Below are positions 2,293 to 51,286 of a stretch of DNA of 59,595 bases, piece after piece; positions within the stretch are counted from its first letter, which is position 1; the number at the start of each line of letters is the position of its first letter. The notes beneath the pieces are model-generated. The model searched no databases. It worked only from the letters and a program-made list of their open reading frames with translations, and was not told where the DNA came from. The translations under genes were made by a program, and so were the position numbers. This DNA is from a virus (taxonomy: Duplodnaviria > Caudoviricetes), in the IMG/VR virus record IMGVR_UViG_3300009183_000106, positions 1 to 59,595 of that record, one strand, 5' to 3'.

Positions 2293-2640
2293 ATGAATTA
2301 TACAGATTGGAATATATTAGTAATAACCCTTTATCAAAACGGGGTAACAATACATAAAAGTTCAACCATGAGAGTTGACATTGAAAAGATGGATAGTTTA
2401 ATGGTTAAAACATTATTGATTGATGTTTTATTTATGATGACATCCGAAACTTTTAAAACTCAAACTAACTCAGATTTACCCTTAAATTGTAATAATTGGG
2501 ATGAAATGAGTCTATCGTTATTTTTATATGATAATGAATATAAAAATATTATTTTAAACAGATCAGAATTTACAAGTGACTTACTTGAATCAAATGATTT
2601 TTTATATAACAAATATATTGAATTATTGGGAATAGTATAA
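2293..2640 (+). CDS. Hypothetical protein, possibly a fibre-associated chaperone
   Basis: 115-aa ORF starting 1 nt after the fibre stop; function suggested by position only. Confidence 0.55.
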   Translation: MNYTDWNILVITLYQNGVTIHKSSTMRVDIEKMDSLMVKTLLIDVLFMMTSETFKTQTNSDLPLNCNNWDEMSLSLFLYDNEYKNIILNRSEFTSDLLESNDFLYNKYIELLGIV

Positions 2641-2679
2641 GTAAATCTTACTTAGGTTTACTATTTGATCTAATGTAAA

Positions 2680-2686
2680 TATTTAT
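2680..2686 (+). promoter_or_regulatory. TATTTAT promoter-like motif
   Basis: 5 nt before the ATG at 2692; TTTACT lies 17 nt upstream; same motif precedes about 20 genes. Confidence 0.55.
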
Positions 2687-2691
2687 GGTAT

Positions 2692-2931
2692 ATGTTAGTA
2701 TTACAAATTGATAGTATCACAGGAACAACATTACCCTATATTATATATGTGTGTGACGTATATGGAAATCAATGTGCGGTTCTATCATACATAAACACTC
2801 CAATACCTCCATCAATAACGTTAAACATACCTTCCCAATTTAATAACGTTCCGGCAATAGGAATTAAAATAATTGACGCAAATGGTTGTGAAGAATTTTC
2901 CATATTAAATTGTGGTGAGGGATCTTTTTGA
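2692..2931 (+). CDS. Small Cys-containing protein, stand-alone paralogue of the N-terminal domain of the mucin-like protein
   Basis: PYIIYVCDVYGNQC...IKIIDANGCEEF aligns with [14 protein letters not shown]...[12 protein letters not shown] of ORF 3021. Confidence 0.7.
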   Translation: MLVLQIDSITGTTLPYIIYVCDVYGNQCAVLSYINTPIPPSITLNIPSQFNNVPAIGIKIIDANGCEEFSILNCGEGSF

Positions 2932-3020
2932 TGGTCAAAAATAACATCGTAAATAATTCACACCAATTATAATCCACAATAAGATTTTGGAATTATATAG
3001 GTGTTGATATTTATTATCAA

Positions 3021-6000
3021 ATGCCGTATCAAATAACATTAACAGTATCGACAGGAACACCACCATATAATATTTTTGTATGTGATGTAACAAACACGTA
3101 TTGTTATTATGCGACGACATTTGGTGGGGGGACAACGACTTTTTATTCCCCATCACCATTAGATGAAACAACCCCAATTTTAGTAAAAATAATAGATTAT
3201 CAAAATTGTGAAACATTCCAATACTATCAATGTGTTCCAACTAATACCCCAACCCATACACCAACATTAACCCCAACCGTAACGGGTCCTTGTACTTGTT
3301 GTTGTCTTGCGGTTAGTTGTAATAATATCAATGGGGGATCTTTTACATATACAGATTGTTTTGGAAATGTAATTGGTAATGTTCTTGTTGCCGGTAATTC
3401 AATTGTATATTATTGTGGTAGTAATGTAACAAATTTAAATAATGTTATTTTAAATTATGGGTTACCATGTATTGATAATAGTTGTGTTTTACCAATACCA
3501 ACCTTAACCCCAACACCAACGGCAACATTAGCCTCTACATCAACGCCAACACCAACGACTACATCAACTAATACCCCAACATTAACTCAAACGTTAACTT
3601 CAACGCCTACAAACACCCCAACATTAACTCAAACGTTAACTTCAACGCCTACTAACACACCTACGTTAACACCTACTAATACCCCTACATTAACACAGAC
3701 ATTAACTCAGACGTTAACACAGACACCTACAAACACACCTACAAACACACCTACGTTAACTCAGACATTAACACCGACTCAGACATTAACACAAACTTTA
3801 ACACCGACTCAGACATTAACTCCGACTAACACACCTACGTTAACACAAACTGTAACTTCCACCCCTACTAATACACCAACGTTAACAAAAACATTAACAC
3901 CAACACCAACTAATACTCCGACTTTAACACAGACATTAACTCCAACTAATACCCCTACGTTAACAAAAACATTAACGCCTACCCCTACTAATACTCCGAC
4001 GTTAACAAAAACATTAACGCCTACCCCAACTAATACTCCGACGTTAACTAAGACTTTAACACCAACCCCAACTAATACGCCGACATTAACTAAGACTTTA
4101 ACGCCTACACCAACCAACACACCTACGTTAACTCAAACTGTTACCCCTACACCAACCAACACTCCGACGTTAACTAAGACTTTAACACCAACGCCAACTA
4201 ATACACCAACGTTAACTAAGACTTTAACTCCGACCCCTACCAACACACCTACGTTAACCCAAACGTTAACCCCAACCCCTACTAATACGCCTACGTTAAC
4301 CCAAACGTTAACCCCAACTAATACTCCAACTTTAACACAGACATTAACACCAACGCCAACCAATACTCCTACATTAACAAAAACATTAACCCCAACACCA
4401 ACCAATACAACTACATTAACTCAAACATTAACCCCAACCAACACACCTACGTTAACTAAGACTTTAACCCCTACACCTACTAACACTCCGACGTTAACTC
4501 AAACTGTAACGTCTACTCCGACCAACACACCAACATTAACTCCAACGTTAACAAAAACTTTAACCCCAACACCAACTCAGACTGTAACTCAGACTGTAAC
4601 TCAGACTGTAACTCAGACTGTAACTTCTACGCCAACTAATACTCCGACGTTAACTCAAACGTTGACAACAACTCCTACCAATACTCCGACGTTAACAAAA
4701 ACTTTAACCCCAACACCAACGTTAACTCAAACTTTAACTCAGACGTTAACTCCAACGCCTACATTAACACAAACCGTAACTTCTACACCAACAAATACTC
4801 CGACCAACACACCAACATTAACTCAGACTTTAACACCTACTAATACTCCGACGTTAACACAAACAGTAACTTCTACACCAACTAATACCCCTACATTAAC
4901 ACAGACTTTAACACAGACTTTAACTTCAACCCCAACTAATACTCCGACATTAACATTAACACCAGGATCAACACCTACTCCTACACCTACAATTACATTA
5001 ACCTCAACACCTACTAATACTCCGACATTAACAGGAACATTAACACCAACCCCTACTAATACTCCAACATTAACTCAGACGGTAACAAAAACTTTGACAC
5101 CAACACCTACTAACACACCAACGTTAACTCAAACTTTAACTCAGACGTTAACTCCAACACCTACAAATACTCCTACGTTAACTCAGACTTTAACTCCAAC
5201 TCCGACTAACACACCTACATTAACTAAGACCTTAACACCAACGCCAACTAATACATCTACATTAACTCAGACTTTAACTCCAACTAATACTCCTACATTA
5301 ACTAAGACTTTAACACCAACTCCGACTTTAACCCAAACTTTAACTCCGACTAATACTCCTACGTTAACACAAACTTTAACTCCGACCCCAACTAATACTC
5401 CTACGTTAACCCAAACTTTAACCCCAACCCCTACTAATACACCTACATTAACTCAGACATTAACTCCAACTAATACTCCGACATTAACGCAGACTGTAAC
5501 TTCTACACCAACTAATACACCTACGTTAACAAAAACTTTGACACCAACACCTACTAACACACCAACGTTAACCCAAACTTTAACGCCTACACCTACTAAT
5601 ACACCAACATTAACTCAGACGGTAACAAAAACTTTGACACCAACACCAACAAATACTCCTACGTTAACCCAAACTTTAACTCAGACGTTAACTCCAACAC
5701 CTACATTAACTAAGACCTTAACACCAACACCAACAAATACTCCGACTTTAACCCAAACGTTGACACCTACTAATACACCTACGTTAACAAAAACTTTGAC
5801 TCCAACTCCTACTAACACTCCGACTTTAACACAAACATTAACTCCTACTCCGACTAATACTCCTACGTTAACTAAGACTTTAACACCAACACCAACAAAT
5901 ACTCCAACATTAACTCAGACGTTAACGCCTACGCCAACTAATACACCTACGTTAACTAAAACTTTAACACCTACACCAACTAATACACCTACGTTAACCC

Positions 6001-7601
6001 AAACGTTAACGCCTACCCCAACTAATACCCCAACAAAAACTTTAACACCAACACCAACATTAACCCCAACACCAACGTTAACAAAAACTTTAACACCTAC
6101 TCCTACTCCAACATCAACATCAACATGTTTTAGTTATACTTTAACAAATACTGGTGGAAATTTTGGACCAAGTTCCGTATACACATTTACACCTTGTTGT
6201 ACCAATATTAATTCATCACCAGTAACTTTAAATCCGCTCGGAGTCGAGTTTACCGAAGTTTGTTCAAGTACAGTACCTGTTTTAACATCTGGGTTTGGAT
6301 CTATCACTTTAAACGGTACTTGCGAGTATTGTGGAACATGCTATTGTTGGGATTTAACTAATAACAATGACGAGTTGACCACATTTACTTATGTTAATTG
6401 TTCAGGGGATACCGTATTGCAAGATGTTAATGTTGGGTCGACAATATCCGTTTGTTCTTCAAGTTATATATCATCAACTGCAATAACAACAGCTACTCGT
6501 AGAGGAAATTGTTCAGGTGGAGTTTGCCCTACACCAACACCAACACCTACTAAGACTTTAACTCCTACACCGACTAATACTCCTACATTAACATTAACAA
6601 AAACATTAACGCCAACACCAACATTAACAAAAACATTAACACCAACTCCGACTAATACTCCAACTTTAACACAGACATTAACCCCAACGCCAACAAACAC
6701 CCCAACTTTAACTAACACTCCAACTCCTACGTTAACTCCGACGTTAACGCCAACAAGAACACCTACATTAACTCCGACGTTAACGCCAACTAAAACATTA
6801 ACGCCAACGCCCACTAGTACTGTACCAGCATTTGTTGGTTTATCCGCTTGTGACCCAATATTTTCAATAGGTAATAATCCCGGGGTTGGATATAATTATT
6901 TTTCTTATAAAGTGTCAACAAATTTAACTCAGAAGATTCTGACACCAATTGTTATTTCATACAATATAGCTCGAACAAACAATAGATTTTGGTTAGAAAA
7001 TGGTAGTTCATCTACGGTAACACAAATTAGGGAATATAGTTTAGTAGAAAGCCCATACAGCGTATCATTAATTAGAACGATACCGGTTAATAATACCTCA
7101 GTGGGGGTTGGATATAATGGATATTTCGCGCTGAATAACACGACTTTACTTGCTAGTAGTGGTTCATATCCTTCATCATTGTATTCCATAGATATAACAT
7201 CGACAGCGGTTACTACATTTAAATGGAATACCCCAGCAACAAGAGCGATTACCGCTAATATTCTCTATACAACAAACGGTAGAGTTTTATATCTTAATAT
7301 GGATACTTCAGCGTCTCAAATAACTTATATAACCCAAAAAGTGTATTCAACAGGTGTTCAAGAGTTTGATGTTCAAATCGGATCCGCTGGAGATACTTTT
7401 CGAAATATGTTCCAAGAAGGTAATTCAATTTACGTCACAAAACTCACAGGACAAGTTTATAGAGTTAACCCATCAAACCCAACACCATTAACTTTAGTTG
7501 GGTCAGTTACTGTTGTTGATCCTTCTCTCTTAGGTGGTGCGGCACAAACAAGTAGTTGTATTACAATACCAATACTCCCATCTTCTTGGGGTACAGTATA
7601 A
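3021..7601 (+). CDS. Mucin-like Thr/Pro-rich repeat protein with Cys-rich modules and a C-terminal beta-rich domain (probable virion surface protein)
   Basis: 1526-aa ORF; about 870 aa of TPTNTPTLT(Q/K)TL-type repeats; Cys modules [23 protein letters not shown]; TATTTAT at 3008-3014. Confidence 0.8.
3495..6122 (+). repeat. Degenerate coding tandem repeat, (Thr-Xaa)n
   Basis: ACN at nearly every second codon; units such as actaatactccgacgttaactaagactttaaca with free synonymous variation. A shorter block lies at about 6527-6820. Confidence 0.95.
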
Positions 7602-7765
7602 CAAACCGAAAATTGGTTAAAGAAAATGGTTTAGATTATAAATAATAAAAAAACTTTATTTCTTTAACATCACATCCCAAAATACAATATGGGGGGTTGG
7701 TTGTTAATTTAACAAATCTATTTATTTTAAATAATTTCACATTATTTTTTTCTTAAAAAAGAAAT

Positions 7766-9013
7766 ATGAGAATTTTTGTGCAAATTGCATCCTATAGAGA
7801 CCCACAGTTAATTCCAACAATAAAAGATATGTTGGATAAAGCAAAAAAACCAAAAAACATTAGTCTTGGTATTGCAAGACAATTCCACCCTGAAGATGGT
7901 TTTGATGATCTGTCAGAATATGAAAATGACGATAGATTCAGAATCTTAAATATTCCTTATACGGAATCAACGGGAGTATGTTGGGCAAGACATTTAACCC
8001 AACAACTTTATAAAGGTGAGGAATATACTCTACAACTTGATTCTCATATGAGATTTGAACAAGATTGGGATGACACCTTAATTAAAATGATCAAACAACT
8101 ACAGAAGAAAGGACATAAAAAACCTTTATTAACGGGATATGTTTCTTCTTTTGATCCTGATAATGACCCACAAGGTAGAGTTAAAGAGCCGTGGAGAATG
8201 TCTTTTGATAGATTTACACCTGAGGGTTGTGTGTTCTTTTTACCTGAAACAATACCAGGTTGGAGCAAACTAAAAAGTCCAATTCCCTCAAGATTTTATT
8301 CGGCACATTTCTGTTTTACTTTAGGTCAGTTTAGTACGGAAGTACAACATGATCCTGAGTTTTATTTTCACGGAGAAGAGATTTCAATTGCGGTAAGAGC
8401 ATATACTCACGGATATGATCTATTCCACCCACATAAAACAGTCATTTGGCATGAATACACTCGTAAGGGTAGAACAAAACAATGGGATGATGATAAAGAA
8501 TGGGGTAAACGTAATGAAAGATGTCATCAGAAAAATAGACAATTATTAGGTGTTGATGGTGAAACTCCCGATAGTGATTATGGTATCTATGGTTTAGGAA
8601 CAGAAAGAACCGTACAGGACTATGAAAAATATGCAGGACTTTTATTCTCAAAAAGAGCGGTACAACAATATACTTTAGATAAACAATACCCACCAAACCC
8701 TTATAACTATAGTTCTGAAGAGGAGTGGAAAGAGTCATTCTCCTCAATCTTCAAACATTGTATTGATGTTCATTATGGTAGTATACCTGAACCCGATTAT
8801 GATTTTTGGGTGGTGGCATTCCATAATTCAAAGGACGAAACATTATATAGATTAGACGCTGGAATCGATGAGATTAATAGAATGAAAAATGATCCTGATG
8901 GTTATTGTAAAATATGGAGAGAATTTAATGCCACAGATAAACCAACCTATTGGGTGGTATGGCCTCACTCAGTATCAAAAGGGTGGTGTGATAGATTAAC
9001 AGGTAACTTATAA
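7766..9013 (+). CDS. GT60-family polypeptide / Skp1-hydroxyproline N-acetylglucosaminyltransferase homologue
   Basis: Motifs IFVQIASYRDPQL, GVCWAR, LQLDSHMRF (DSH), FHGEEISIAVRAYTHGYDLF, WHEY. Confidence 0.85.
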   Translation: MRIFVQIASYRDPQLIPTIKDMLDKAKKPKNISLGIARQFHPEDGFDDLSEYENDDRFRILNIPYTESTGVCWARHLTQQLYKGEEYTLQLDSHMRFEQDWDDTLIKMIKQLQKKGHKKPLLTGYVSSFDPDNDPQGRVKEPWRMSFDRFTPEGCVFFLPETIPGWSKLKSPIPSRFYSAHFCFTLGQFSTEVQHDPEFYFHGEEISIAVRAYTHGYDLFHPHKTVIWHEYTRKGRTKQWDDDKEWGKRNERCHQKNRQLLGVDGETPDSDYGIYGLGTERTVQDYEKYAGLLFSKRAVQQYTLDKQYPPNPYNYSSEEEWKESFSSIFKHCIDVHYGSIPEPDYDFWVVAFHNSKDETLYRLDAGIDEINRMKNDPDGYCKIWREFNATDKPTYWVVWPHSVSKGWCDRLTGNL

Positions 9014-9031
9014 AAATAAAAAAATAATTAT

Positions 9032-10372
9032 ATGAATTTAAAAATTGCAATTGCTCAGTTCTACACTTCTAACGTATCTTACGGTAAATACACAGAAGAA
9101 ATTAATAAAAAATATTGTGAAGAACAAGGGTATACATATCACGTTGAGAAAGATGATAATAAAATAAACACCGAATTGGAAGGAAGATCCGCAACATGGT
9201 ATAAACCAAAATTCATTGCTGAGGTTTTTGAAACCCATAACCCCGATTATGTTTTATTTTTAGATGCGGATGCTATTGTTTCCGACCCATCAAGAAGAAT
9301 TGAGGAGTTTATTGAAGAAGGATTTAACATTATATGTACAGAAGATTACGGTCCAAGTGTTATAAATGCTGGTGTGTTCTTATTAAAGAATAGTGATTGG
9401 ACTAAAATGATATTAAAAAAATGGTGGGATGTTTGTGATACGTTAACAGGTGGACCTAATAATGAATTAGGTTTTTATAAAACAGGTTTATGGCATGACC
9501 AAACTTGTTTTGGACATCTTATTACTAGTAGGTTAGACTCCAAAGATAATATTAAGGTTATAACTAATAAAGTTCTTAATGGTAGGATATATAAACATTC
9601 CGTTAACAACAATTTTATTTTCCATGCGTTTTCATATGGAGATCAACCATATAGAACTTTTGACCACATTTATAACACGGTCTTTAATATTAATACCGAT
9701 GAAAGAGAAAGTATGAGTAATATTGCAAAAAGATACCCAACAGACAAAGATTTTACCCACAATTATTTTAATTCAGTTTATGAAAGATATTTTTCTCCAA
9801 TCAGAGATGAAGTTAAAAAGTTTTGTGAGGTTGGTGTTGGTGGTTTTTGGGAAGAAGCAGGATGGGTTCCCGGCAATTCATTACGTGTGTGGGATGAGTA
9901 TTTTCCAAATGCTGAAATCTTAGGTTTAGATATTAATTCTTTTAACTTAACTAGTCAAGGTAAAGTTGTGGTTGATTATATTGATCAATCAAATAAAGTA
10001 CTTGTTGATGAATACGCATCAAAAATATCTGAATATGATATCATTCTTGATGATGGATCTCACGTTATGTATGATCAACAAATTACAATGTCGGCATTTT
10101 TTAAATCACTTAAGAGTGGTGGTATATTTGTGATGGAAGATCTTCACACAAGTCCTGAGGTAAGAATGCCAGAAAAGAATGCGATATGGAATTGGGGTGA
10201 CCCAACTAAGATAACAACATTAGAGATGTTGGAAAGTTTTGTTAACACAGGTAAAATTATTTCTGATTACCTATCTGAAGAAGAAAAACTTTATTTAGAA
10301 GAAAATATTAGTTCTGTGGATATTTTTACTGTGGCACCTACAAGTATAACATCTATCATCTATAAAAAATAA
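9032..10372 (+). CDS. GT34 (GMA12/MNN10-like) glycosyltransferase fused to a class I SAM-dependent (sugar O-)methyltransferase
   Basis: N-terminal WYKP, VLFLDADA, INAGVFLLKNS, HDQT; C-terminal TDK..HNY, EVGVG, GLDI, DQS, IILDDGSH, GGIFVMEDL. Confidence 0.8.
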   Translation: MNLKIAIAQFYTSNVSYGKYTEEINKKYCEEQGYTYHVEKDDNKINTELEGRSATWYKPKFIAEVFETHNPDYVLFLDADAIVSDPSRRIEEFIEEGFNIICTEDYGPSVINAGVFLLKNSDWTKMILKKWWDVCDTLTGGPNNELGFYKTGLWHDQTCFGHLITSRLDSKDNIKVITNKVLNGRIYKHSVNNNFIFHAFSYGDQPYRTFDHIYNTVFNINTDERESMSNIAKRYPTDKDFTHNYFNSVYERYFSPIRDEVKKFCEVGVGGFWEEAGWVPGNSLRVWDEYFPNAEILGLDINSFNLTSQGKVVVDYIDQSNKVLVDEYASKISEYDIILDDGSHVMYDQQITMSAFFKSLKSGGIFVMEDLHTSPEVRMPEKNAIWNWGDPTKITTLEMLESFVNTGKIISDYLSEEEKLYLEENISSVDIFTVAPTSITSIIYKK

Positions 10373-10375
10373 TTT

Positions 10376-11353
10376 ATGGTTATAGTTGTTTTATATTGTT
10401 ACATGGTTGATGATTGGTACGATAGGTTATCAAAACAACTTCAAAGAGTTCAAGACAGTTCATTATATGATGAACTTAATGAATTCCATTTAGTTGTTAC
10501 AGATATTAATCAAAATCAAAAAGAGATACTTGATAATTTATTAATTAAATACCCAAAAATTATTTTAGATTATAATACTCGTAATGATTACGAAAGTCAT
10601 GCTCTTTCTAAAATTGATAATATTGCGAGAACATATGGTGATTGTAAAATTTTATATTTTCACACTAAAGGGGTGTCTAACAAATATAAAAATTTAGTAA
10701 CAAATGAACCCTATGATCTAAAAGTTGATGGTATTAAATGTTGGGCAGAATTATTGGAGCATTTTGTTATTGACCACTGGAGAGAATGTGTTAATAAATT
10801 AGATGAATACGATACTGTTGGTGTAAACAATGTCGGTAATTGGTGGTGGGGAAATTTTTGGTGGTCAAATTCAAAACACATAAAAAATAATATACCATTT
10901 GATCAGTATTTTGGGGGATCAAGATGGCAATGCGAATCTTGGTTACACGAATCAAATAAAAACATTGATGACATTAAATACTTTCAATTTCACCACTTTA
11001 ATTACGACCCTTATTATTCAGTCCTACCAAAATACTTTTACGATAATACAGACATATCTAATTTAGAAATTAAAGTTATAGATTCAAAATTTGGATATTT
11101 TGCCGAACAAAGGGATGAAGGTCGAGGATTAAGTGAAAATGAAGACAATATTGTTGATGTAACAAATAAAGTTATTGAACTATTAAAACTTTCGGATAAT
11201 AAAACTTTTGGTTTTTTCCCTGAACAATCTTTTATTGGGGATCACCCATATAAAGGTAACGATAAATCAATTAGGATTTTATTTAAAACAAATATAGATC
11301 CTGAAAAAACATACACCTTAACCTCTTATCACCAAAATATAATAAAATTATGA
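10376..11353 (+). CDS. Putative glycosyltransferase-like protein
   Basis: YE..AL, ILYFHTKGVS and GNFWWSNS motifs seen in glycosylation clusters; operon context. Confidence 0.6.
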   Translation: MVIVVLYCYMVDDWYDRLSKQLQRVQDSSLYDELNEFHLVVTDINQNQKEILDNLLIKYPKIILDYNTRNDYESHALSKIDNIARTYGDCKILYFHTKGVSNKYKNLVTNEPYDLKVDGIKCWAELLEHFVIDHWRECVNKLDEYDTVGVNNVGNWWWGNFWWSNSKHIKNNIPFDQYFGGSRWQCESWLHESNKNIDDIKYFQFHHFNYDPYYSVLPKYFYDNTDISNLEIKVIDSKFGYFAEQRDEGRGLSENEDNIVDVTNKVIELLKLSDNKTFGFFPEQSFIGDHPYKGNDKSIRILFKTNIDPEKTYTLTSYHQNIIKL

Positions 11354-12459
11354 AAAAAATTCTATTTTTAATTCTAACTTCAAAAACCCACAACCATAGG
11401 GGTGAAATAAATATTGATCGGGTGGATTTAACTAGAAAATTAGACGCAATCAATACTTGGGTTGGCGATGTTTTAGATACAGATAATGATGTTATTTTTT
11501 TTGATGGTGAAAATAAAGAGGTATCATTTGATGAAAATAGTAAAACATTACACCTAACTGATTATGACGGATATGAAGATGGGGTTACTTTAAGTAAATT
11601 ATTTCCCAAAGTTAAATCGGCATTAAAATGGGTGTATGAAAATAAAGAGTTTGATACTTTATATATATGTGATGATGACATTTATATAAATTTACCTGAG
11701 TTTTTAAAAATAAGTTTCAATCATGACTTTATGTCTAATGGTTCATTAGGTGGGGGAGGATTTTTCTTAAACAAAAAGGCAATAAAATCAATTATAAATT
11801 ATGAAAATACTCATCATAAACATTGTGATCAATTAATATTTGATGTTATTAATAGTGATAATACATTAACAAAATCATTTAGTAATGATAGATGTTGCCC
11901 TTTTTATATTCCGGGAGAATTGTATTCGACAATACATTATGTGACAGGAAAAAGATCTTATTTTTTACATAATATTTTTAAATTTTACCATGAAAATGGA
12001 TATACAAATAGAAAAATTATTTTAGGTGGTGGTTTAGACTCCTACCATAAAAATAAAATTGTAAGTTATGAATCATTAGTTGGTAGAAAAACATCAAGAT
12101 GGTACGATTTTACTGTAGATTCAAATAATTGGGAATACCATAGTGGTTACGCTAGAAGTACGGTATCTGTTAATAATCTAAAAAACTTTTGGCCTTACGG
12201 AGAAAGAACCACAAAATTCTTCGTAGTTAATTTTGATAATTTATTATCAGATTATATCAACACTAATTTATTTTACCCAAATTTAGAATATATTATTAAT
12301 AAATGTGAAGAATCACTAATAGATAATGGGAATGTATTTCTAATGTCCGAAAAAAATGAAAATATAAATGGTTGGGTAATAGATAATGATATTAAAATCT
12401 CGCATAAACTAAATTTTGAATTATTAAATAATTGTAATTTTTATAGAAAAATTAAATAG
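11350..12459 (+). CDS. Putative GT31 / Fringe-like glycosyltransferase
   Basis: L..KV...LKW, YICDDDIYINL and GGGGFFLN motifs; ATGA overlap with the upstream gene. Confidence 0.65.
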   Translation: MKKILFLILTSKTHNHRGEINIDRVDLTRKLDAINTWVGDVLDTDNDVIFFDGENKEVSFDENSKTLHLTDYDGYEDGVTLSKLFPKVKSALKWVYENKEFDTLYICDDDIYINLPEFLKISFNHDFMSNGSLGGGGFFLNKKAIKSIINYENTHHKHCDQLIFDVINSDNTLTKSFSNDRCCPFYIPGELYSTIHYVTGKRSYFLHNIFKFYHENGYTNRKIILGGGLDSYHKNKIVSYESLVGRKTSRWYDFTVDSNNWEYHSGYARSTVSVNNLKNFWPYGERTTKFFVVNFDNLLSDYINTNLFYPNLEYIINKCEESLIDNGNVFLMSEKNENINGWVIDNDIKISHKLNFELLNNCNFYRKIK

Positions 12460-12460
12460 T

Positions 12461-14155
12461 ATGAATAAAAATATAACATTAGTTACAGGTCTTTGGGATA
12501 TGGGTAGAGGTAACCTTGATGGATGGGCAAAAAGAGATTTTGAATATTATAAAACTAGATTCTTTGAGTTTTTAGAAACAGATGTACAAATGTGTATTTG
12601 GATACCTAAAGATTTGGAGGAAGAAGTTTTAAAGATACGAGGTGATAGACCAACTAAAATTTTTATAAAGAATTTAGAGGATTTTAAAACTTGGAACCCA
12701 TTTTTTAGTAAGATCCAAGAAATACGTAATACTGATAGTTGGAGAAATTTTGCGGGTTGGTTGAAAGATTCCCCACAGGCGACATTGGAATTTTATAATC
12801 CGATGATGTTCACAAAAATGTTTATGTTAAATGATTCATCAATTATAAACCCATTTAATTCTGAATATCTTTTTTGGATTGATGGTGGCTTAACAAATAC
12901 GGTTAGTTCAGGTTATTTTATTAAAGACAAAGTTTTAGATAATTTAGAGAATTATATGTTATCATTAGATAAAGAATATGTTCATATAACCTATCCTTAT
13001 GAGGCTAATGATGAAATTCATGGGTTTGAAAGAAGTGGTATGTCAAAATATTGTGGTACTGACTATGTTAATTATGTAGCAAGAGGTGGTTTCTTCGGTG
13101 GTCATAAAAATACAATCCATAATATGAATACATTATATTATGGGATAATGGAATCCACATTAAAGGATAATTTAATGGGTGCGGATGAATGTTTATTTAC
13201 AATATTATGTCATAATCACCCTGACTTAATTCATAGGTTTAAAATTGAAGGTAATGGATTGGTATGGCCGTTTTTTGAAAATTTAAAAAGTTTTGAACAA
13301 CCTATTGATGTTGAAACTAAAATAAAAAATAATGATGTTGTTGGTAGTGAAATAGGATTATATGTAATTACATTTAATTCACCAAAACAATTTGAAACTT
13401 TAATTGAGTCTATGTTGGATTATGATCCATCATTTCTAACTAAAACTAAAAAATATCTACTTAATAATTCGACAGACTTATCAACAACTGAAAGATATAT
13501 TCAACTGTGTGACCAATATGGGTTTGAACATATTAAAAAAGATAATATTGGTATAACAGGTGGTAGACAATTTATTGCAGAACATTTTAATGATCAAAAT
13601 AATTTAAGTCATTATTATTTCTTTGAGGATGATATGTTTTTCTACAATGGTTCTGAAATAACTTGTAAGAATGGATTTATTAGAAAAATAAAAAACATAT
13701 TTGACAATACTTTAAAAATTATTAAAGAAGAGAAATTTGATTTTTTAAAGTTAAACTTTACAGAATTTTATGGTAGCCATAATAAACAATGGGCTTGGTA
13801 TAATGTTCCACAATCATTTAGAGAATCCCATTGGGTAAATAACCCAAGATTACCTGAACATGGTTTAGATCATAATTCACCTAATTTAGAATTTAAACAC
13901 ATTAAATCTTACAATGGAATACCATATGCTACAGGTGAAATATACTTATGTAATTGGCCAATAGTAATGTCAAAAGAAGGTAATTATAAATGTTATCTCA
14001 AAACAAAATTTGGTATGCCTTACGAACAAACTCTTATGTCTCATTGTTACCAAGAAATGGTAAAGGGTAATATAACGGGTTCTGTGCTACTTGCAACGCC
14101 AACTGATCATAATAGATTTGATTTTTATGATGGTAGTTTAAGAAAAGAATGTTAA
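12461..14155 (+). CDS. HtrL/YibB-like glycosyltransferase domain fused to a GT-A-like domain
   Basis: ITLVTGLWDMGR, NPFNSEYLFWIDGG, GGFFGG; C-terminal NIGITGGR, YYFFEDDMF. Confidence 0.7.
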   Translation: MNKNITLVTGLWDMGRGNLDGWAKRDFEYYKTRFFEFLETDVQMCIWIPKDLEEEVLKIRGDRPTKIFIKNLEDFKTWNPFFSKIQEIRNTDSWRNFAGWLKDSPQATLEFYNPMMFTKMFMLNDSSIINPFNSEYLFWIDGGLTNTVSSGYFIKDKVLDNLENYMLSLDKEYVHITYPYEANDEIHGFERSGMSKYCGTDYVNYVARGGFFGGHKNTIHNMNTLYYGIMESTLKDNLMGADECLFTILCHNHPDLIHRFKIEGNGLVWPFFENLKSFEQPIDVETKIKNNDVVGSEIGLYVITFNSPKQFETLIESMLDYDPSFLTKTKKYLLNNSTDLSTTERYIQLCDQYGFEHIKKDNIGITGGRQFIAEHFNDQNNLSHYYFFEDDMFFYNGSEITCKNGFIRKIKNIFDNTLKIIKEEKFDFLKLNFTEFYGSHNKQWAWYNVPQSFRESHWVNNPRLPEHGLDHNSPNLEFKHIKSYNGIPYATGEIYLCNWPIVMSKEGNYKCYLKTKFGMPYEQTLMSHCYQEMVKGNITGSVLLATPTDHNRFDFYDGSLRKEC

Positions 14156-14892
14156 AGTATTTTATTACTCTTCCTTAAATTATCTTCCGCCCATAGAGGT
14201 TGAAGATTAGTATAATGACAAAGTTTATAAATTTCTTCTTCGGTATTTGCGGACGATAATGGTATTATGTGGTCTATGTGTATGTACTTACCCATTAAAT
14301 CCCAAGTCATCCCTTCGGTAAATTGGTTTTCAAGGTGTTCTTTAAGAAACTTCGGAGAACAACCTACAATATCAAACGTTTTATTTTGTTTTATAATATT
14401 GTTATTTTTTAGAAAAGTATAGATTCTACCTCTTACATTATGTGATAAACGATAAATTGGGTTATTTATTTTTTTAGTTTTTAAAAATTCATTACGTTTT
14501 TCTCTATTAATATTATTATATTTTTTATTATATTCTAAACGTTTTTCTCTATTATTATAGTAATATTTTGTGCTGAGGGTTCTGAATTTTTCTAAATTTT
14601 TTTCTTTATTTTCGTGATAATGTTTTTTAACTCTTTCTATAAGAACTTCTTTATTATTTTGATAATATTTTTTAACGTAATTAGGATTTTTTTCACGAAA
14701 TTTTTTATGATAATCGGGATTATCTATTTTCCATAATTTTAAATATGTTTTATTTTCATTTACTCTTGTTTTTGTATAAATAATTTTACATTCTTTACAA
14801 GAACTATAATAACCATCTATTTTTGATTTATCCGTGTAAAACTCACAAACCTCTTTTTCTTCTTTACATTTACTACATATCTTTGTTTGCAT
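14152..14892 (-). CDS. HNH endonuclease with N-terminal Cys4 zinc finger (homing-endonuclease-like), copy 1
   Basis: CSKC...CKEC; HIDHIIPLSSA...LCHYTNLQPLWAEDNLRKSNK. Confidence 0.85.
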   Translation of the reverse strand: MQTKICSKCKEEKEVCEFYTDKSKIDGYYSSCKECKIIYTKTRVNENKTYLKLWKIDNPDYHKKFREKNPNYVKKYYQNNKEVLIERVKKHYHENKEKNLEKFRTLSTKYYYNNREKRLEYNKKYNNINREKRNEFLKTKKINNPIYRLSHNVRGRIYTFLKNNNIIKQNKTFDIVGCSPKFLKEHLENQFTEGMTWDLMGKYIHIDHIIPLSSANTEEEIYKLCHYTNLQPLWAEDNLRKSNKIL

Positions 14893-15028
14893 AATACTCT
14901 ATTAATAATTTCTCTAACAATCTTGATTTATTTGTTTTTTCTTTAACCATACGATTAAATAAACGAGGATCTAAACTTATTCCAAACTTAACCTTTCTGT
15001 CTTCAACTAATTTTAATTTTCTTCCCAT
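14873..15028 (-). CDS. 51-aa ribbon-helix-helix-like DNA-binding protein upstream of HNH copy 1
   Basis: MGRKLK...KVKFGISLDPRLF...NKSRLLEKLL; start placed at 15028, 5 nt after TATTTAT; paralogue at 30884. Confidence 0.65.
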   Translation of the reverse strand: MGRKLKLVEDRKVKFGISLDPRLFNRMVKEKTNKSRLLEKLLIEYYANKDM

Positions 15029-15115
15029 ATTATATAAATATCGCAAAAAATTAAAAAGTATCACTTTTTTTAAATTAAAATAAAAAAATCAAGTATTTAT
15101 ATATAAAACAATTAA

Positions 15116-16402
15116 ATGGAGTGGTACATAAAAAAAAATGCTACGTTACCCGTTTTAAAGATGCAAGTCGTTAAAGACGGTAGAAGTGATTATAATAAGA
15201 TGATGGAAATGATTGTGGAATCTTCTATCTTTTTTTCAATGGTAGATACTGAGACGGGGATTCCAAGAATTGTTACTAGACCCGCTGGATTTGTTGAGAA
15301 AACATTAATGGATCCTAATGCTGAGTATGAATATTATGTTTATTATCAATTCACATCAAATGACACAAGAAAAGTTGGGAGATATGAAGGCCAGTTCTTA
15401 TTAAGAAATTCAGATGGTACATTAATTTTACCTATTAGAGAAAAACTATATATAAACGTACAGGAAAGTTTCATTGCTGATGATCTTCCGTATGAGTCTT
15501 GTTATGTTGTTGAGTTCCCTTGTTGTGCAAGTATCCCAACAACATCTACAACAACCACAACCCCTTGTCATAGTTGTGGACCATGTTGTCCTCCAACACC
15601 AACCCCTTTAACAACAACCACAACCACAACCCCTACTCCAACATCAACACCTCCTGAAAATGTTGTTTATGATTTATCTATAGATGTGACAGCTGGTTCT
15701 ATTGTTGTTGATTGTGTGTTGACATGTGATCGACCTGTTGATCAACTTGTGACATTAGAGGTTAATACTATTTTAGATTTGTTGTCTGGAGGTTCAATTA
15801 ATATACCGGCAACGGTATCTATATTACCAAATGAATTGTCAGGAACTATTCAGGTGATTAATACTGATTATGATTACTCTGATTTAGGGGAGACTGGGTA
15901 TTTTGAGACTGGTGAAGTAAATGTGAGTGGGTTAACTTATAACCTTAATGGGGTTTTGAATCATTTCATTGTTACTCCAACACCAACTCCGACTAATACG
16001 ACTACACCAACTGTAACCCCAACAAAGACTTTAACTCCTACACCGACTCCTACACCAACAACATTAAACGATAATTTAATTGTTTATTATGGTAAATTGG
16101 AAAAATTATTTGTTGATTCAAATGATATGGTAGATTTGGGTATTTTGGAGACTAAAAATATTAAAAATGTATATTTATCTTACGGTATGATACCAGGGTA
16201 TTGTTATGTGGTTGTTCCTGAGATATTGGATCAGCCGGTACACTTTAAAAACAGTGTTGATGGATGTAATGGATTTACCATTCCGTTCGCAAGACTTGAC
16301 GACATTAGTGTATATGACTCAAATGGTGTTGCCAGTGTATATTATGTGTATAGATCTTATGTGTCAACAAGTTCAAGTGTTGATGTATGGGTTTGTGATT
16401 AA
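15116..16402 (+). CDS. Virion structural protein with BppU-like N-terminal domain and Thr/Pro linkers
   Basis: IKKNATLPVLKMQVVKDG...YYQFTSNDT..VGRYEGQF; Cys cluster; two TP-rich tracts; TATTTAT at 15094. Confidence 0.6.
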   Translation: MEWYIKKNATLPVLKMQVVKDGRSDYNKMMEMIVESSIFFSMVDTETGIPRIVTRPAGFVEKTLMDPNAEYEYYVYYQFTSNDTRKVGRYEGQFLLRNSDGTLILPIREKLYINVQESFIADDLPYESCYVVEFPCCASIPTTSTTTTTPCHSCGPCCPPTPTPLTTTTTTTPTPTSTPPENVVYDLSIDVTAGSIVVDCVLTCDRPVDQLVTLEVNTILDLLSGGSINIPATVSILPNELSGTIQVINTDYDYSDLGETGYFETGEVNVSGLTYNLNGVLNHFIVTPTPTPTNTTTPTVTPTKTLTPTPTPTPTTLNDNLIVYYGKLEKLFVDSNDMVDLGILETKNIKNVYLSYGMIPGYCYVVVPEILDQPVHFKNSVDGCNGFTIPFARLDDISVYDSNGVASVYYVYRSYVSTSSSVDVWVCD

Positions 16403-16418
16403 AAAAAATTATATGTAA

Positions 16419-16913
16419 ATGTCAGAATTTGAATTACTAGGAGGTATTGGTGTAATGGGCTTTATAAGCCCGATGGATACAAGAGACTCTTATGCTGTTA
16501 TTGACCCAATTTATGGTATTGATGGACTTAGAAATGTTCATTCGATCCATGATTTAAATACCATTCCGTTTCTGAGAAGAAGGTCGGGTATGATTGTGGG
16601 GGTTAATGGTGGTGAGAAGTATTTCAAGTTAAAAAAGATTTCATGGATAAATGATATTACTGATTGGGTTGAAATTGATTTAACTAAAATCATTTATATA
16701 GATAAGGAGATTCCTTATGGAGTAATTGATGGAATTAACGATATTTTTGAATTATCTTCTGACCCAATTCCCAATTCTGAGCATTTATTCTTAAATGGGT
16801 TATTAAATGATTCTGGTATAGATGAGGACTATTTAATTGAAGGTAAGACCATTAAATTTTCCATTCCGCCTGATATTGGCATGAAAATAAGATGTAGTTA
16901 TCGCAGTTTTTAA
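16419..16913 (+). CDS. Putative virion structural protein
   Basis: IPFLRRRSGMIVGV motif and C-terminal LFLNGLL...DY...I.F module, shared with the end of ORF 17319. Confidence 0.55.
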   Translation: MSEFELLGGIGVMGFISPMDTRDSYAVIDPIYGIDGLRNVHSIHDLNTIPFLRRRSGMIVGVNGGEKYFKLKKISWINDITDWVEIDLTKIIYIDKEIPYGVIDGINDIFELSSDPIPNSEHLFLNGLLNDSGIDEDYLIEGKTIKFSIPPDIGMKIRCSYRSF

Positions 16914-17318: not shown

Positions 17319-20300
17319 ATGTCAAATACTAAAATTGTATTAAATAGACAGTCTGATTTAATATTGGACAACGCGGAAATTACATCACCAGTTGGTATCG
17401 TCTTAGCTGACATCGCTGGAGCTACTGATGCAATATCTGCTGAAGAATCATTAAGAGTAGCTGCGGTAGCTGCTGAAGAATCAATGAGAATAGCTGGTGA
17501 TGTTGAAGTAACTCAACTGGTAAGAAATGAACGAGATACTCGTGTCGCTGCTGTATCTACTGAAGAGTCTGCTCGTATCGCTGGTGATTTAAACCTTCAA
17601 AACCAAATCGACAATGTACTGTCTAATGTTGATGGTGCTGCTTTGGATTCATTAACGGAAATCGTTGGAGCTTTCCAATCTGCTGATGATGATTTGAATG
17701 GTGCTATCACACTTTTAGCTAACACTGCAAGTTCTGCATTGTCAACTGAAGTTGAAGCTCGTATCTCTGATGTTGACGCTGAACAAGCAAGAGCTGAATC
17801 AGCTGAAGCTGTATTGACTGCTGATTTATCTGCTGAAAGATCTGCTAGAATTCTTTCTATAGCTGCTGAAGTTGAAAAAGAAGTATCTAAAAGAATCGCT
17901 GATGTTGATGCTGAAGAGTCTCGTGCTAGCGAAGCTGAAGAAATGTTAGCTGCTGATTTATCTTCTGAAGTTGCTGCTCGTGAAGCGGCTATTTCTGCTG
18001 AGTCATCAGTTAGAAGAGAAAATGATGAGGCCGAAGAGTCTCGTGCTATCGAAGCTGAAGGTTCATTAGCTACAGTTATCGCTGCTGAACACAGTGAACA
18101 CATCGCAAACGAATTATCTATCGTTACTGCAATGGATGCTGCTGATTCATCTGAAGCATCTGCTCGTATCGCTGGTGATGCATCATTAACTGCTGATTTA
18201 GCTGCTGAAGGTGTTCGTGCTGGAAACGCTGAAGGCGTATTAACTGCTAATTTAGCTGCTGAAGGTGTTCGTGCTGGAAATGCTGAAGCTAGTTTAGCTA
18301 CTGATTTAGCTTCTGAAATCATGAACAGAGGTAATGCTATTGATAATGAGCAATCTGCAAGAATCGATGGTGACCAATCACTACAAAACCAAATTGATTT
18401 CATCACAGACAACACTGATGCTGCTGCAATTGATTCATTAACTGAAATCGTTGCTGCTTTCCAAAGTGCTGACGGAGAAATCAATGGTGCAATTACTACA
18501 TTAGCAGATGCTGCTGGTGCTAACTTGTCAACTGAGGTTGCTCGTGCTACAAGTGTTGAAGGTGTATTAACTGCTGATTTATCTACTGAAGTTGCTGCAA
18601 GAGAAGCTGCTGTTTCTATGGAAGAAGCTGCTCGTATTGCTGCTGAGTTAGTTTTAACTAATAGTTTATCTGTTGAAGTTGCTGCACGTATCGCTGATGT
18701 TGATGTTGAAGAAGCAAGAGCAATGGCTGCTGAGTTAGTTTTAACTAATGATTTATCCGCTGAAGTTGCTGCTCGTATCGCTGATGTTGATGCTGAAGAG
18801 TCTCGTGCTATGGCTGCTGAGTTAGTTTTAACTAACAACTTGTCTACAGAAATGTCTGCACGTATTGCTGACGTTGATGCTGAAGCATCTCGTGCTACTG
18901 CTGCTGAAGGTATATTAACTGCTGATTTATCAAGTGAAGTTGCTAACAGAGGAACAGCTGTAACTGCTGAAGCTTCTTACAGAGTTGCTGGAGATTTATC
19001 TCTACAAAACCAAATTGACTTCATCACAGAAAACATCGACCCAGTTGCTATCGATTCATTAACTGAAATCGTTGCTGCTTTCCAATCTGCTGATGGTGAT
19101 ATTAACGGAGCAATTACAGAATTAGCTGATGCTGCTGGTGCTAACTTGTCAACTGAAGTTGCTCGTGCTACAAGTGCTGAAGCTGTATTGACATCTGATT
19201 TATCAAGTGAAGTATCTGCAAGAATTGCTGATGTTGATGCTGAAGAGTCTAGAGCTACTGCGGCTGAGTTAGTTTTAACAAACGATTTATCTTCTGAAGT
19301 ATCAAACAGAATTGCTGACGTTGATGCTGAAGAGTCTCGTGCTACTGCTGCTGAGTTAGTTTTAACAAACAACTTGTCTACTGAAGTTTCTAACAGAATT
19401 GCTGACGTTGATGCTGAACAAGCAAGAGCTGAAAGTGCTGAAGCTGTATTGACTGCTGATTTATCAAGTGAAATGTCTGCTCGTATCGCTGATGTTGATG
19501 CTGAAGAGTCTAGAGCTATGGCTGCTGAAGATTTACTTGATGGTGACCTTCGTTCTGAAATGATGAACAGACAAATTGCTGTTGATGCTGAAGCATCTTA
19601 CCGTGTTTCAGGTGATTTGTCACTTCAAAACCAAATTGACTTCATTACATCTAACGTTGATGCTGCTGCAATCGATTCATTAACTGAAATCGTTTCTGCG
19701 TTCCAATCTGCTGATGGTGATATCAACAACGCAATCACTACATTAGCTGATGCTGCTGGTGCTAACTTGTCAACGGAAGTTGCAAGAGCTGAAAGTGCTG
19801 AAGCTGTATTGACTGCTGATTTATCAAGTGAAGTATCTAATAGAGAATCTGCTGACACTAGTTTAGCTGTTGCTTTATCTATTGAAGTGTCTAAAAGAAA
19901 TGATTTAGGACAAAGCGTTTATTCTGAAGTTTCTAACAGAACTGCTGACGTTGATGCTGAAGAATCAAGAGCTATCGCTGCTGAAGGTGTTTTAACATCA
20001 GATTTATCTTCTGAAGTTGCTAACAGAGAAGCTGCAATATCTGCTGAAGAATCAATGAGAGTTGAAGCTGACGCATCTATCGCTGCTGAATTGTCTTCTG
20101 ACATTGCTGGATTAGCTGATGTTGATGGAACAACTATCGTTCTTAACGGTGATACTAACCAAATCGAATTGGCTGACGAAGTTGCTGCTGGTGCTGGTGG
20201 AAATAGAACGTTCTTAGGTGAAATAGATATCAAAACAATCTTGAAAGTAGGTGGTGTTGATGTAATGGCTGAAATTAGTTCAGAAATTGCAAGAGCTGAA

Positions 20301-20836: not shown

Positions 20837-21211
20837 ATGATAGAAGTACCTTTAAAAATAGAAATTAAAGAAAGTCCAAATAAAGGACTTGGTGTGTTTG
20901 CGAAGGAAAAAATCTTAAAAGATGAAATCATTGAAATATGTCCTTTAATTAAATTAGATGTACCTCATAATTCAGATGTTTTAGATGACTACAGATTCTA
21001 TTATCCAAGAAAAACGGCAAAAGATTATGTAGTTGTGTTAGGGTATGGGTCTTTGTATAATCATAACGACCAAAACAACGCTGATTGGAGAGATGGAAAA
21101 CCAATGACATTTGAATTTTTTGCAACTAAGGACATTGAACTTGGTGAAGAAATTTATTTAAAATACGGTGGACCAGAATACTTCAAACAAAGGCCAAAAG
21201 ATTGGTTGTAA
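20837..21211 (+). CDS. Stand-alone SET-domain protein-lysine methyltransferase
   Basis: SPNKGLGVFA, GYGSLYNH...NA, FFATKDIELGEEIYLKYG. Confidence 0.9.
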   Translation: MIEVPLKIEIKESPNKGLGVFAKEKILKDEIIEICPLIKLDVPHNSDVLDDYRFYYPRKTAKDYVVVLGYGSLYNHNDQNNADWRDGKPMTFEFFATKDIELGEEIYLKYGGPEYFKQRPKDWL

Positions 21212-30883: not shown

Positions 30884-31039
30884 ATGGGACGACCTAAAAA
30901 AGAAGAAAAGGATAAAAAAATTAAAGTTGGGATTTGTATGGATAGACAACTTTATAAAAAAGTTATGGAAAATGGTGGTAAAGTGTCCCAAATAATAGAA
31001 AGTATAGTTAGAGAATATTATGGATACAAAGATTTGTAG
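30884..31039 (+). CDS. 51-aa ribbon-helix-helix-like protein upstream of HNH copy 2
   Basis: MGRPKK...KIKVGICMDRQLY...KVSQIIESIV; start 6 nt after TATTTAT (30871-30877). Confidence 0.65.
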   Translation: MGRPKKEEKDKKIKVGICMDRQLYKKVMENGGKVSQIIESIVREYYGYKDL

Positions 31040-50962: not shown

Positions 50963-51286
50963 ATGAATTTACAATATTATAATAGATATAATGAGTTTTT
51001 AATAAATGGACAACAAACAGTTGTACCATATATAAATTTACCTGCAAAAACAACTGATAAAAATTTCATATACAAAGTCGGACAATCAAGGTTGGATAAG
51101 GTATCGTTTCAATTTTATAGTACACCTTATTTTGGGTGGTTAGTACAAATGGCAAATCCACAGTATAGTGGGTTAGAATCAAACATACCCGATGGGGCAA
51201 TTTTAACAATACCATTCCCCCTTGTTAAATCATTACAGGATTATAAAAATGAATTAGATAATTATTTCTTCTATTATGGTAGATAA
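50963..51286 (+). CDS. Baseplate wedge LysM/gp53-like protein
   Basis: RLDKVSFQFY....GWLVQMANP...IPDGAILTIP. Confidence 0.75.
   Translation: MNLQYYNRYNEFLINGQQTVVPYINLPAKTTDKNFIYKVGQSRLDKVSFQFYSTPYFGWLVQMANPQYSGLESNIPDGAILTIPFPLVKSLQDYKNELDNYFFYYGR

Follow-up and report, generated by a model that had tools for sequence, protein, structure and literature searches.

The window analysed here is the whole of a 59,595-base IMG/VR virus record (IMGVR_UViG_3300009183_000106), and our subject is a run of six genes at its positions 3021 to 14155 in which the gene of a very long threonine- and proline-rich (TP-repeat) protein is followed by five genes headed by a glycosyltransferase (GT) of the GT60 family. 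The record has a G+C content of ca. 32% and an estimated completeness of ca. 20% (CheckV), which implies a full genome size of roughly 300 kb. Because of its tail sheath, baseplate and polymerase gene content (family-B-type DNA polymerase, helicase, long tail sheath, baseplate hub and head-tail adaptor-like protein) and this completeness estimate, we regard the window as a fragment of a jumbo myovirus genome. Among 50,697 isolate phage records, its DNA polymerase matched 12, with a best identity of 24.5%. The genes that matter for the argument are the following, with amino acids abbreviated as aa:

3021..7601, plus strand: P0001, TP-repeat, fibre-like protein of 1526 aa and proposed main acceptor (translation, composition, tandem repeats)
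7766..9013, plus strand: P0002, GT60-family glycosyltransferase and proposed initiating polypeptide N-acetylhexosamine (HexNAc) transferase (PF11397, PHROG, predicted structure)
9032..10372, plus strand: P0003, GT34-like glycosyltransferase with an S-adenosylmethionine (SAM)-methyltransferase-like domain, proposed to extend the glycan and O-methylate a sugar (Pfam, PHROG)
10376..11353, plus strand: P0004, DUF8361-family protein with a YFHTKG motif and presumed glycan-pathway enzyme (motif conservation, protein-atlas label)
11350..12459, plus strand: P0005, GT31-fold glycosyltransferase with a DDD motif at aa 108-110 and proposed beta-1,3-type extender (predicted structure)
12461..14155, plus strand: P0006, HtrL_YibB domain (aa 4-262) with a putative GT-A-like C-terminal domain, the conserved downstream bracket (Pfam, motifs)
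15116..16402, plus strand: P0007, TP-linker protein and proposed second acceptor (translation; N-terminal domain conserved in relatives)

An earlier note on this DNA had proposed a phage-encoded mucin-type O-glycosylation system in which five tightly coupled genes directly follow the TP-repeat gene, and the arrangement is indeed as it described: all six open reading frames (ORFs) lie on the plus strand at these positions, the P0001 and GT60 genes are separated by 164 nucleotides (nt), and the five enzyme genes then follow one another with gaps of 18 nt and 3 nt, a 4-nt overlap and a gap of 1 nt. The grouping of window genes into an operon is based on gene spacing alone, and a promoter and terminator scan of positions 2500-16500 found no excess over shuffled sequence.

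The first of these enzymes, P0002, matches the GT60 family model PF11397 (“GlcNAc”) with an E value of 2.7e-73 and 247.9 bits against a cut-off of 21, in agreement with a six-frame family search of the window, and phrog_24687 with an E value of 7.4e-168. Across P0002 and 38 diverse homologues aligned with it, D92 and H94 of a DxH motif (D92-S93-H94) and a distal histidine, H229, are invariant and, by analogy, may be the ligands of a manganese ion. Searches of the PDB with the sequence of P0002 or its profile returned nothing usable, and its structural kinship was read from an AlphaFold (AF2) model with a pLDDT of 95.8. Foldseek against the PDB listed polypeptide N-acetylgalactosaminyltransferases (ppGalNAc-Ts, family GT27) in each listed row between ranks 1 and 35, with E values of about 2e-10, and VIA-align likewise gave ppGalNAc-Ts at ranks 1 to 29 (Z 19.3-22.5, rmsd 3.4-3.9 Å over 260-280 residues), with other GT-A enzymes dropping to Z ≤17.9. 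As modelled, P0002 is specifically nearest to the catalytic domains of GT27 polypeptide GalNAc-transferases, which bears out the kinship of GT60 and GT27 that the earlier note had invoked. GT60 enzymes are described as related to GT27 and without a ricin-like domain (PMC8724618), and P0002 equally has no evident ricin-type lectin domain but carries a beta-rich C-terminal extension of ~90 aa. The GT60-like family as a whole comprises 4775 clusters at E ≤ 0.001 in a library of 1.8 billion proteins, many of its members being proteins of 800-2461 aa with two to four tandem GT60 domains (P0050-P0062 and others).

P0001, the gene product preceding this enzyme, is as rich in threonine and proline as the earlier note had reported, with 569 Thr (37%), 217 Pro and 185 TPT triplets in its 1526 aa. 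Its parts, all on the plus strand, are arranged as follows:

3021-3515, plus strand: N-terminal part, aa 1-165, in which a conserved domain precedes a short TP linker and a module rich in Cys
3516-6134, plus strand: strict (T-x)n repeat, aa 166-1038
6135-6527, plus strand: two small Cys-rich modules, aa 1039-1169
6528-6812, plus strand: second TP stretch, aa 1170-1264
6813-7601, plus strand: variable C-terminal globular domain of ~260 aa, aa 1265-1526

Half of the residues of the strict repeat are threonine (436 of 873, 50%), forming 430 T-x-T pairs in a strict (T-x)n alternation with P, L, N, Q or K at x. The underlying DNA, with a GC skew of -0.70 over positions 4001-6000, has a 42-nt period with ~54 copies that match at only 67%; the repeat has thus been kept in the protein while diverging in the DNA and is therefore no recent product of slippage. 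Searches of P0001 gave no Pfam family besides a low-complexity match, and among the PHROGs a match to phrog_15511, which is of unknown function; the phrog_15511 matches are probably low-complexity artefacts.

The relatives of the locus put this composition into perspective. Counts of related loci cover the best 80 of at least 454 IMG/VR stretches in which a close relative of P0002 is encoded. The N-terminal part of P0001 recurs in 55 of these 80 loci, in 47 of them upstream of the GT60 gene on the same strand, and its C-terminal part in only 4. The members of this upstream-gene family combine an N-terminal domain of ~68 aa with TP linkers and small Cys-rich modules, their linkers ranging from ~25 aa to ~1000 aa and their C-terminal domains being unrelated. 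In a number of these genes upstream of GT60 (L002:5655-9941, L062:8512-9939, L042:7305-9947 and others), Cys-rich modules of ~55-65 aa alternate with TP linkers like beads on a string, and no family match was found for the small Cys-rich modules of the upstream genes. By its sequence, P0001 looks like a case of extreme linker expansion within a modular, fibre- or adhesin-like family, and not like a dedicated “coat” as in the picture drawn by the earlier note. If extended, the stalk could measure ~200-270 nm, judging from the length per residue.

Downstream of the upstream gene, the same loci have a framework that is kept and an interior that is not. In 79/80 related loci, an HtrL-GT homologue comes after the GT60 gene on its strand, with gaps of -9 to 6317 nt between the two, and a homologue of the P0007 N-terminal domain lies 3’ of the HtrL-GT gene in 68/80. 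Few relatives share the three middle genes (GT34-methyltransferase 15/80, DUF8361 8/80, GT31-like 5/80), and relatives carry alternative cassette genes, among them a HAD and NTP-transferase fusion, a DegT aminotransferase, GT25, GT10, GT11, GT2 and GT7C. The conserved unit is a modular TP-linker gene, GT60, a variable glycan cassette, HtrL-GT and a second TP-linker gene, in this order, and the variation of the cassette among close relatives suggests that an exposed glycan is under diversifying selection. The extender and capper genes of the earlier note are one version of a hypervariable cassette, and only GT60 and HtrL-GT are constant.

Among the remaining enzymes of the window, P0003 matches PF05637 (GT34) in its N-terminal half with an E value of 7.1e-14 (52.6 bits against a cut-off of 23) as well as PF03314 (E 4.4e-13), and its residues ~229-378 match the methyltransferase family phrog_21658 (E 3.4e-21). 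P0004 has DUF8361, a family rich in viral proteins, as its sole family label, a protein-atlas lead with a score of 0.98; it had no match in Pfam, NCBIfam or PHROG, and a profile search found no relative in the PDB. Y94, H96, K98 and G99 of its YFHTKG motif are invariant across 30 homologues, and many of its 184 homologues are joined behind a GT34 domain in proteins of 545-550 aa (P0285-P0318). P0005 had no Pfam match, and its profile reached only E values of 0.26-0.69 against the PDB (B3GNT2 at 0.66). In a Foldseek search with its AlphaFold (AF2) model (pLDDT 93.7), GT31 enzymes take the ten best places among the PDB matches (E 6.5e-7 to 2.9e-5, TM 0.36-0.55), the list being headed by CHSY3/CHPF, B3GalT6, B3GNT2, B3GalT5 and C1GalT1 (E 6.5e-7 to 5e-5). 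Within its DDD motif, D110 is invariant and D109 present in at least 90% of homologues. We assign P0005 to a GT31-type GT-A fold by its predicted structure, without a family match at the sequence level. One of its homologues, P0044, carries a fused GT34 domain, and since DUF8361 and GT31-like proteins each occur fused to GT34 among viral or metagenomic proteins, the three middle genes of the operon are tied to one pathway. Atlas leads also point to Nucleocytoviricota as a common source of relatives of the DUF8361 and GT31-like proteins.

The last enzyme, P0006, matches PF09612 (HtrL_YibB) over aa 4-262 with an E value of 1.7e-19 and 70.9 bits against a cut-off of 24.1. Its match to the NCBIfam equivalog TIGR02192 (E 5.1e-16, 59.2 bits) lies under the cut-off of 264.9, and we therefore consider it a member of the HtrL_YibB family and no orthologue of E. 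coli YibB; HtrL was all that NCBIfam added among the operon proteins. The C-terminal half of P0006 had no sequence match in Pfam, NCBIfam or the PDB, profile search included. N306 and P308, N336-S337-x-D339 and E389-D390-D391 are invariant there among 10 homologues that include those of XacN1, Xoo-sp13 and RAS14, and it is on these conserved NNSTD and EDD motifs only that we call this half GT-A-like. Of the enzyme assignments made in the earlier note, those of GT60, GT34 with methyltransferase, the YFHTKG motif, the GT31 fold and HtrL were upheld, with the GT-A half of P0006 suggested by motifs alone.

None of the operon enzymes or TP proteins has a transmembrane-like window of 19 residues (maximal Kyte-Doolittle mean 1.48), which is consistent with the earlier statement that the TP-repeat protein has no obvious signal peptide. 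Because it has no signal or membrane anchor, the phage GT60 enzyme would be active in the cytoplasm of the bacterium. No Wzx/Wzy-type or lipid-carrier gene came up when the operon and the genes around it were scanned with Pfam.

On the far side of the operon, P0007 consists of a conserved N-terminal domain of ~138 aa and globular parts separated by Thr/Pro-rich linkers around aa 140-180 and 285-320. Its N-terminal domain may resemble the N-terminal Ig-like domains of baseplate and fibre proteins, but the only lead, to a “baseplate hub gp25” chain, was not significant at an E value of 0.31; Pfam had no match to this domain in 8 homologues.

The two TP proteins hold all 71 coding sites of the motif TPTxTPT in the window, with 67 in P0001, 4 in P0007 and none elsewhere in its 59.6 kb (reversed control 0), so that the clustering of TP motifs around the operon is not chance. 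For the relatives, the 80 loci were reduced to 47 distinct GT60 proteins, and 4 variants without an upstream gene and 7 without a downstream homologue were excluded from the denominators. A TP segment is present in the gene directly upstream of GT60 in 24/43 evaluable distinct variants and in the conserved downstream gene, the P0007 homologue, in 17/40, against a background of 4/351, 10/306 and 8/183 genes in three near-whole related genomes. In related genomes, TP linkers are scattered over 4 to 10 genes, some of them far from the cluster, and the operon neighbours are therefore not the sole acceptor candidates. The adjoining TP protein, which the earlier note took for the substrate, is not the only likely one, given P0007 and the scattered TP genes.

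The association extends to whole genomes. TPTxTPT sites number 15-108 per genome in 8/8 GT60-bearing genomes (five IMG/VR records together with XacN1, Xoo-sp13 and RAS14, which have 51, 51 and 22 sites, respectively), with 0-2 sites in reversed-pattern controls, and are absent (0 sites) from 10/10 large phages without GT60 that total 3.18 Mb (Atu_ph07, SCTP-2, phiKZ, phage G, RSL1, P-SSM2, RaK2, T4, KVP40 and S-SSM7). PF11397 was detected in 5/5 positives and in none of these ten negatives. For the reverse test, 48 records were taken from the 50 loci with the longest contigs among 80 listed IMG/VR loci chosen solely for a TPTxTPTxTPT site. Of these TP-selected records, 16/48 have a GT60 homologue at 28-75% identity, as do 10/16 of those of at least 100 kb and 3/9 of those rated at least 90% complete; by comparison, GT60 homologues occur in 4/50,697 isolate phage records, XacN1, Xoo-sp13 and RAS14 among them. 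The near-complete TP-motif genomes without GT60 are G006, G010, G017, G022, G031 and G045. We conclude that GT60 is strongly, though not obligatorily, associated with TP motifs, many of the genomes being kin. The earlier note had made the co-occurrence of GT60 with TP-repeat genes a check of its idea, and it holds both in relatives and in an unrelated phage lineage.

This second lineage is formed by jumbo phages of Xanthomonas and Stenotrophomonas, in which GT60 is followed by a carbamoyltransferase, one or two ORFs and an HtrL-GT homologue at 39-40% identity. By sequence, the XacN1 group is a lineage unrelated to the window phage, and these jumbo phages were absent among the matches of the window DNA polymerase in the 50,697 isolate records. 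In XacN1, the bracket runs from ORF334 (GT60 homologue) to ORF330 (HtrL-GT) beside baseplate-wedge genes and an ORF of 3313 aa. The TP motifs of XacN1 lie at the end of ORF325, in ORF232-237, in ORF369-372 next to tail-sheath genes and in ORF384. The authors of the XacN1 report describe at least two glycoproteins in its virions and propose the phage glycosyltransferases ORF328 and ORF334 as their makers (PMC5852040). These glycoproteins are the sole support, and an indirect one, for a transfer of sugar to polypeptide by enzymes of the GT60 type here.

Gene content, family and fold assignments, the conserved bracket and the co-occurrence of GT60 and TP motifs at the level of genomes are direct observations, and the reading that we favour on them, with some confidence, is that the operon at 7766-14155 serves to O-glycosylate, in the cytoplasm, the TP linkers of fibre-like proteins of the virion. 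A soluble, cytoplasmic line of enzymes would act on phage proteins before or during assembly, with the GT60 enzyme placing the first sugar on threonine in T-P or T-x-T contexts; acceptor sites of GT60 and GT27 enzymes are known for a preference for proline. Lineage-variable transferases, here the GT34, DUF8361 and GT31-fold enzymes, would then extend the glycan, the methyltransferase domain fused to GT34 would modify a sugar, and the HtrL plus GT-A protein may carry out a step common to all variants. P0001 and P0007 would be the nearest acceptors, and the TP linkers of more distant genes would be glycosylated in trans. The expected products are stiff, hydrated and protease-resistant “bottle-brush” linkers on virion appendages, with P0001 as a very long stalk that bears small Cys-rich modules and ends in a domain that varies. 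Transfer to threonine, the identity of the sugars, the order of steps, the location in the virion and the biological benefit are all things that we infer.

Several points weigh against this reading. The donor sugar and the acceptor are deduced from genes alone, and none of P0001, P0007, P0008 and P0009 is annotated as structural by Pfam or PHROGs. The strict T-x alternation could by itself form an ordered beta-type fibre without need of a glycan. HtrL_YibB is named after an E. coli locus of the lipopolysaccharide (LPS) core and would fit a polysaccharide target equally well, as would the GT25 “LPS biosynthesis” enzymes found in some cassettes. By the criterion used here, a TP segment is missing from the upstream gene in 19/43 and from the downstream gene in 23/40 variants, and the XacN1 genes adjoining the module are not TP-rich. 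In the reverse test, 32/48 TP-selected records, including 6/9 of those at least 90% complete, have no GT60 homologue. The ten negative genomes are a convenience sample, hand-picked from well-known large phages and not random; such phages were used because the window polymerase has no close isolate relatives from which a GT60-negative set could have been formed. Finally, the compared genomes are mutually related, and the association rests on few independent lineages and not on 8 or 16 separate events.

Some of these points would be accommodated if the operon glycosylated virion or other phage proteins away from the TP linkers, which would then be mere spacers or an ordered T-x fibre, with the association as a lineage signature. 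This would suit XacN1, where glycoproteins are reported (PMC5852040) yet no TP-rich gene lies beside the module, the TP-motif genomes without GT60 (6/9 of the near-complete ones) and the strict T-x alternation, which is unlike that of typical mucin domains. We nevertheless think it unlikely, because the association recurs where GT60 proteins are only 28-48% identical and replication genes are unrelated, and because TP-bearing genes flank the module on both sides at ~15-50 times the background rate of TP segments. Known acceptors of GT60 and GT27 enzymes are, moreover, rich in threonine (PMC8724618) and in proline.

We see a similarly small chance that the operon remodels a surface polysaccharide of the host (LPS, O-antigen or capsule), for example for superinfection exclusion or to block the re-adsorption of progeny, in which case the adjacency of TP genes would merely reflect a shared, variable “host-interface” region. 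Iyer et al. read variable multi-GT clusters of jumbo cyanophages in this way, as modifiers of outer polysaccharides (PMC7824862), and the hypervariability of the cassette among close relatives resembles that of O-antigen loci; membership of P0006 in HtrL_YibB and the presence of GT25 “LPS biosynthesis” enzymes in some cassettes would also fit. Against this, P0002 is nearest to the polypeptide-modifying GT27 enzymes and not to polysaccharide synthases, and the scans of the operon turned up neither a flippase or polymerase nor an initiating phosphoglycosyltransferase or a membrane segment. Remodelling of the host surface would not predict the genome-wide association of GT60 and TP motifs either, and the glycoproteins reported for XacN1 are in its virions (PMC5852040).

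Phage GTs often attach sugars, also as multi-sugar glycans, to hydroxymethylated bases of the phage genome, which is thereby hypermodified and escapes restriction (bioRxiv 10.1101/2023.12.21.572611), and a thymidylate-synthase-family gene that might encode a hydroxymethylase is present in 3/5 related records searched, but we consider such a role of the operon highly improbable, since that gene lies >160 kb from the cluster in the related genome G001 and has no counterpart in the window, the fold kin of P0002 are polypeptide transferases and the cluster sits among fibre-like and not among nucleotide-metabolism genes (a search for the Tet_JBP family had no match but neither had its control, so that it is uninformative).

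Between the operon and P0007 lies one gene of a different kind:

14152..14892, minus strand: HNH / endonuclease-VII-like gene (phrog_1035, E 2.9e-16)

This gene shares 4 nt with the end of the HtrL-GT gene, and no more than 6/80 related loci have a homologue; it is probably the insertion of a mobile homing endonuclease outside the glycan pathway. A paralogue is encoded at 31020-31646 on the plus strand (phrog_1035, E 6e-21).

The wider surroundings of the operon are fibre-like, with a protein of 750 aa rich in serine, threonine and glycine and a repeat protein of 1148 aa resembling a coiled coil. The latter, encoded at 17319-20765 (+), is rich in Ala, Glu and Ser and has long, near-identical coiled-coil-like repeats (motifs like ADVDAEESRA...AAE.VLT.DLS.EV); Pfam and PHROG scans gave no noteworthy family match, and the product probably belongs to the fibrous proteins of the virion. 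A SET-domain protein of 124 aa (PF00856, E 1.3e-12) of the lysine-methyltransferase type is encoded beside the fibre-like genes at 20837-21211 (+), and two leucine-rich-repeat (LRR) proteins at 21295-22830 (+) and 23090-25153 (+) are possible host-binding proteins, the second with 12-14 LRR units (PF12799, E 9.2e-58) and a weakly CBM5/12-like C-terminus (E 0.031). The tail sheath gene at 38067-41408 (+) encodes 1113 aa, of which a sheath-family match covers the last ~290, leaving ~800 N-terminal residues without explanation. Two giant ORFs at 45984-50960 (+) and 51276-58418 (+), 3’ of the baseplate hub, encode 1658 and 2380 aa and have essentially no PHROG match.

Among the known systems that come closest to the proposed module is the mucin-type O-glycosylation of eukaryotes, initiated by GT27 ppGalNAc-transferases and, in Dictyostelium and Trypanosoma cruzi, by GT60 polypeptide alpha-GlcNAc-transferases. 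The two share a PF11397 lead enzyme with the ppGalNAc-T fold, the DxH motif and the distal histidine, dense Thr/Pro acceptor candidates and a GT31-fold extender, GT31 being the family of the core-1 synthase C1GalT1. They differ in that the pathway proposed here is encoded by a phage and would operate in the bacterial cytoplasm instead of the Golgi, on acceptors of strict T-x alternation. The phage enzyme, of which the activity is predicted only, has the additional beta-rich extension, and its companions (HtrL plus GT-A, DUF8361 and GT34-methyltransferase) have no eukaryotic counterpart. In terms of the acceptor, a parallel is offered by the Pro/Thr “PT-box” linkers of bacterial cellulases, e.g., in Cellulomonas, which are reported to be O-glycosylated and protected from proteases. 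These also are alternating Pro/Thr linkers between small modules, arranged like beads on a string as in the upstream-gene family, but PT-box cellulases are secreted and glycosylated by the host, whereas the phage linker reaches a length of ~870 aa, and its proposed enzymes come from the virus and would work in the cytoplasm.

Among viruses, XacN1 is alike in its GT60 to HtrL-GT bracket, its 51 TPTxTPT sites and at least two reported virion glycoproteins (PMC5852040), but it has a higher GC content, belongs to an unrelated lineage and has a carbamoyltransferase cassette instead of GT34, DUF8361 and GT31. In mycobacteriophage Che8 and its relatives, GTs of the phage decorate its own structural proteins and form a “glycan shield”, as described in PMC11256854 with reference to Freeman et al. 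2023; no other case of phage-encoded virion glycosylation has been described as well. The glycosylation of own virion proteins by phage-encoded GTs, as proposed here, is comparable, though in another host phylum; the mycobacteriophage acceptors described are major capsid proteins as opposed to long TP linkers. Giant viruses similarly encode cytoplasmic glycosylation that yields clade-specific glycans, on the chlorovirus capsid and the Mimivirus fibrils, but have eukaryotic hosts and other acceptors and linkages, and no GT60-led initiator with TP repeats is described in the literature consulted. Virion glycosylation itself is known from mycobacteriophages, suggested for XacN1 and well studied in giant viruses. 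In the open-access literature that was searched, we found no paper that links GT60 or PF11397 to phages or to the glycosylation of TP linkers.

Taken further, two or more unrelated jumbo-phage lineages, i.e., a freshwater low-GC clade and the XacN1 group, may carry a eukaryote-like mucin-type pathway in which a polypeptide HexNAc-transferase of the GT27/GT60 type and exchangeable extenders, all cytoplasmic, make “phage mucins” on virion appendages, bottle-brush stalks of hundreds of nanometres with an O-antigen-like diversification of their glycans, a proposal that we advance tentatively. It can be tested in cultivable relatives with reported virion glycoproteins. If true, GT60 together with TP linkers would be a simple genomic predictor of glycosylated virions, and the phage enzymes would have a bearing on the origin of the GT27 and GT60 initiators. 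Under the favoured reading, soluble, cytoplasmic polypeptide O-glycosyltransferases with natural repeat acceptors could also be useful for the production of glycoproteins in bacteria. Environmental jumbo phages of a large and widely distributed group (a close GT60 relative is encoded in at least 454 IMG/VR stretches) would then build heavily O-glycosylated, mucin-like appendages with enzymes that resemble the initiators of mucin synthesis in eukaryotes, which would change the view of the virion surface of aquatic phages, their adsorption and stability and their resistance to proteases or grazing.

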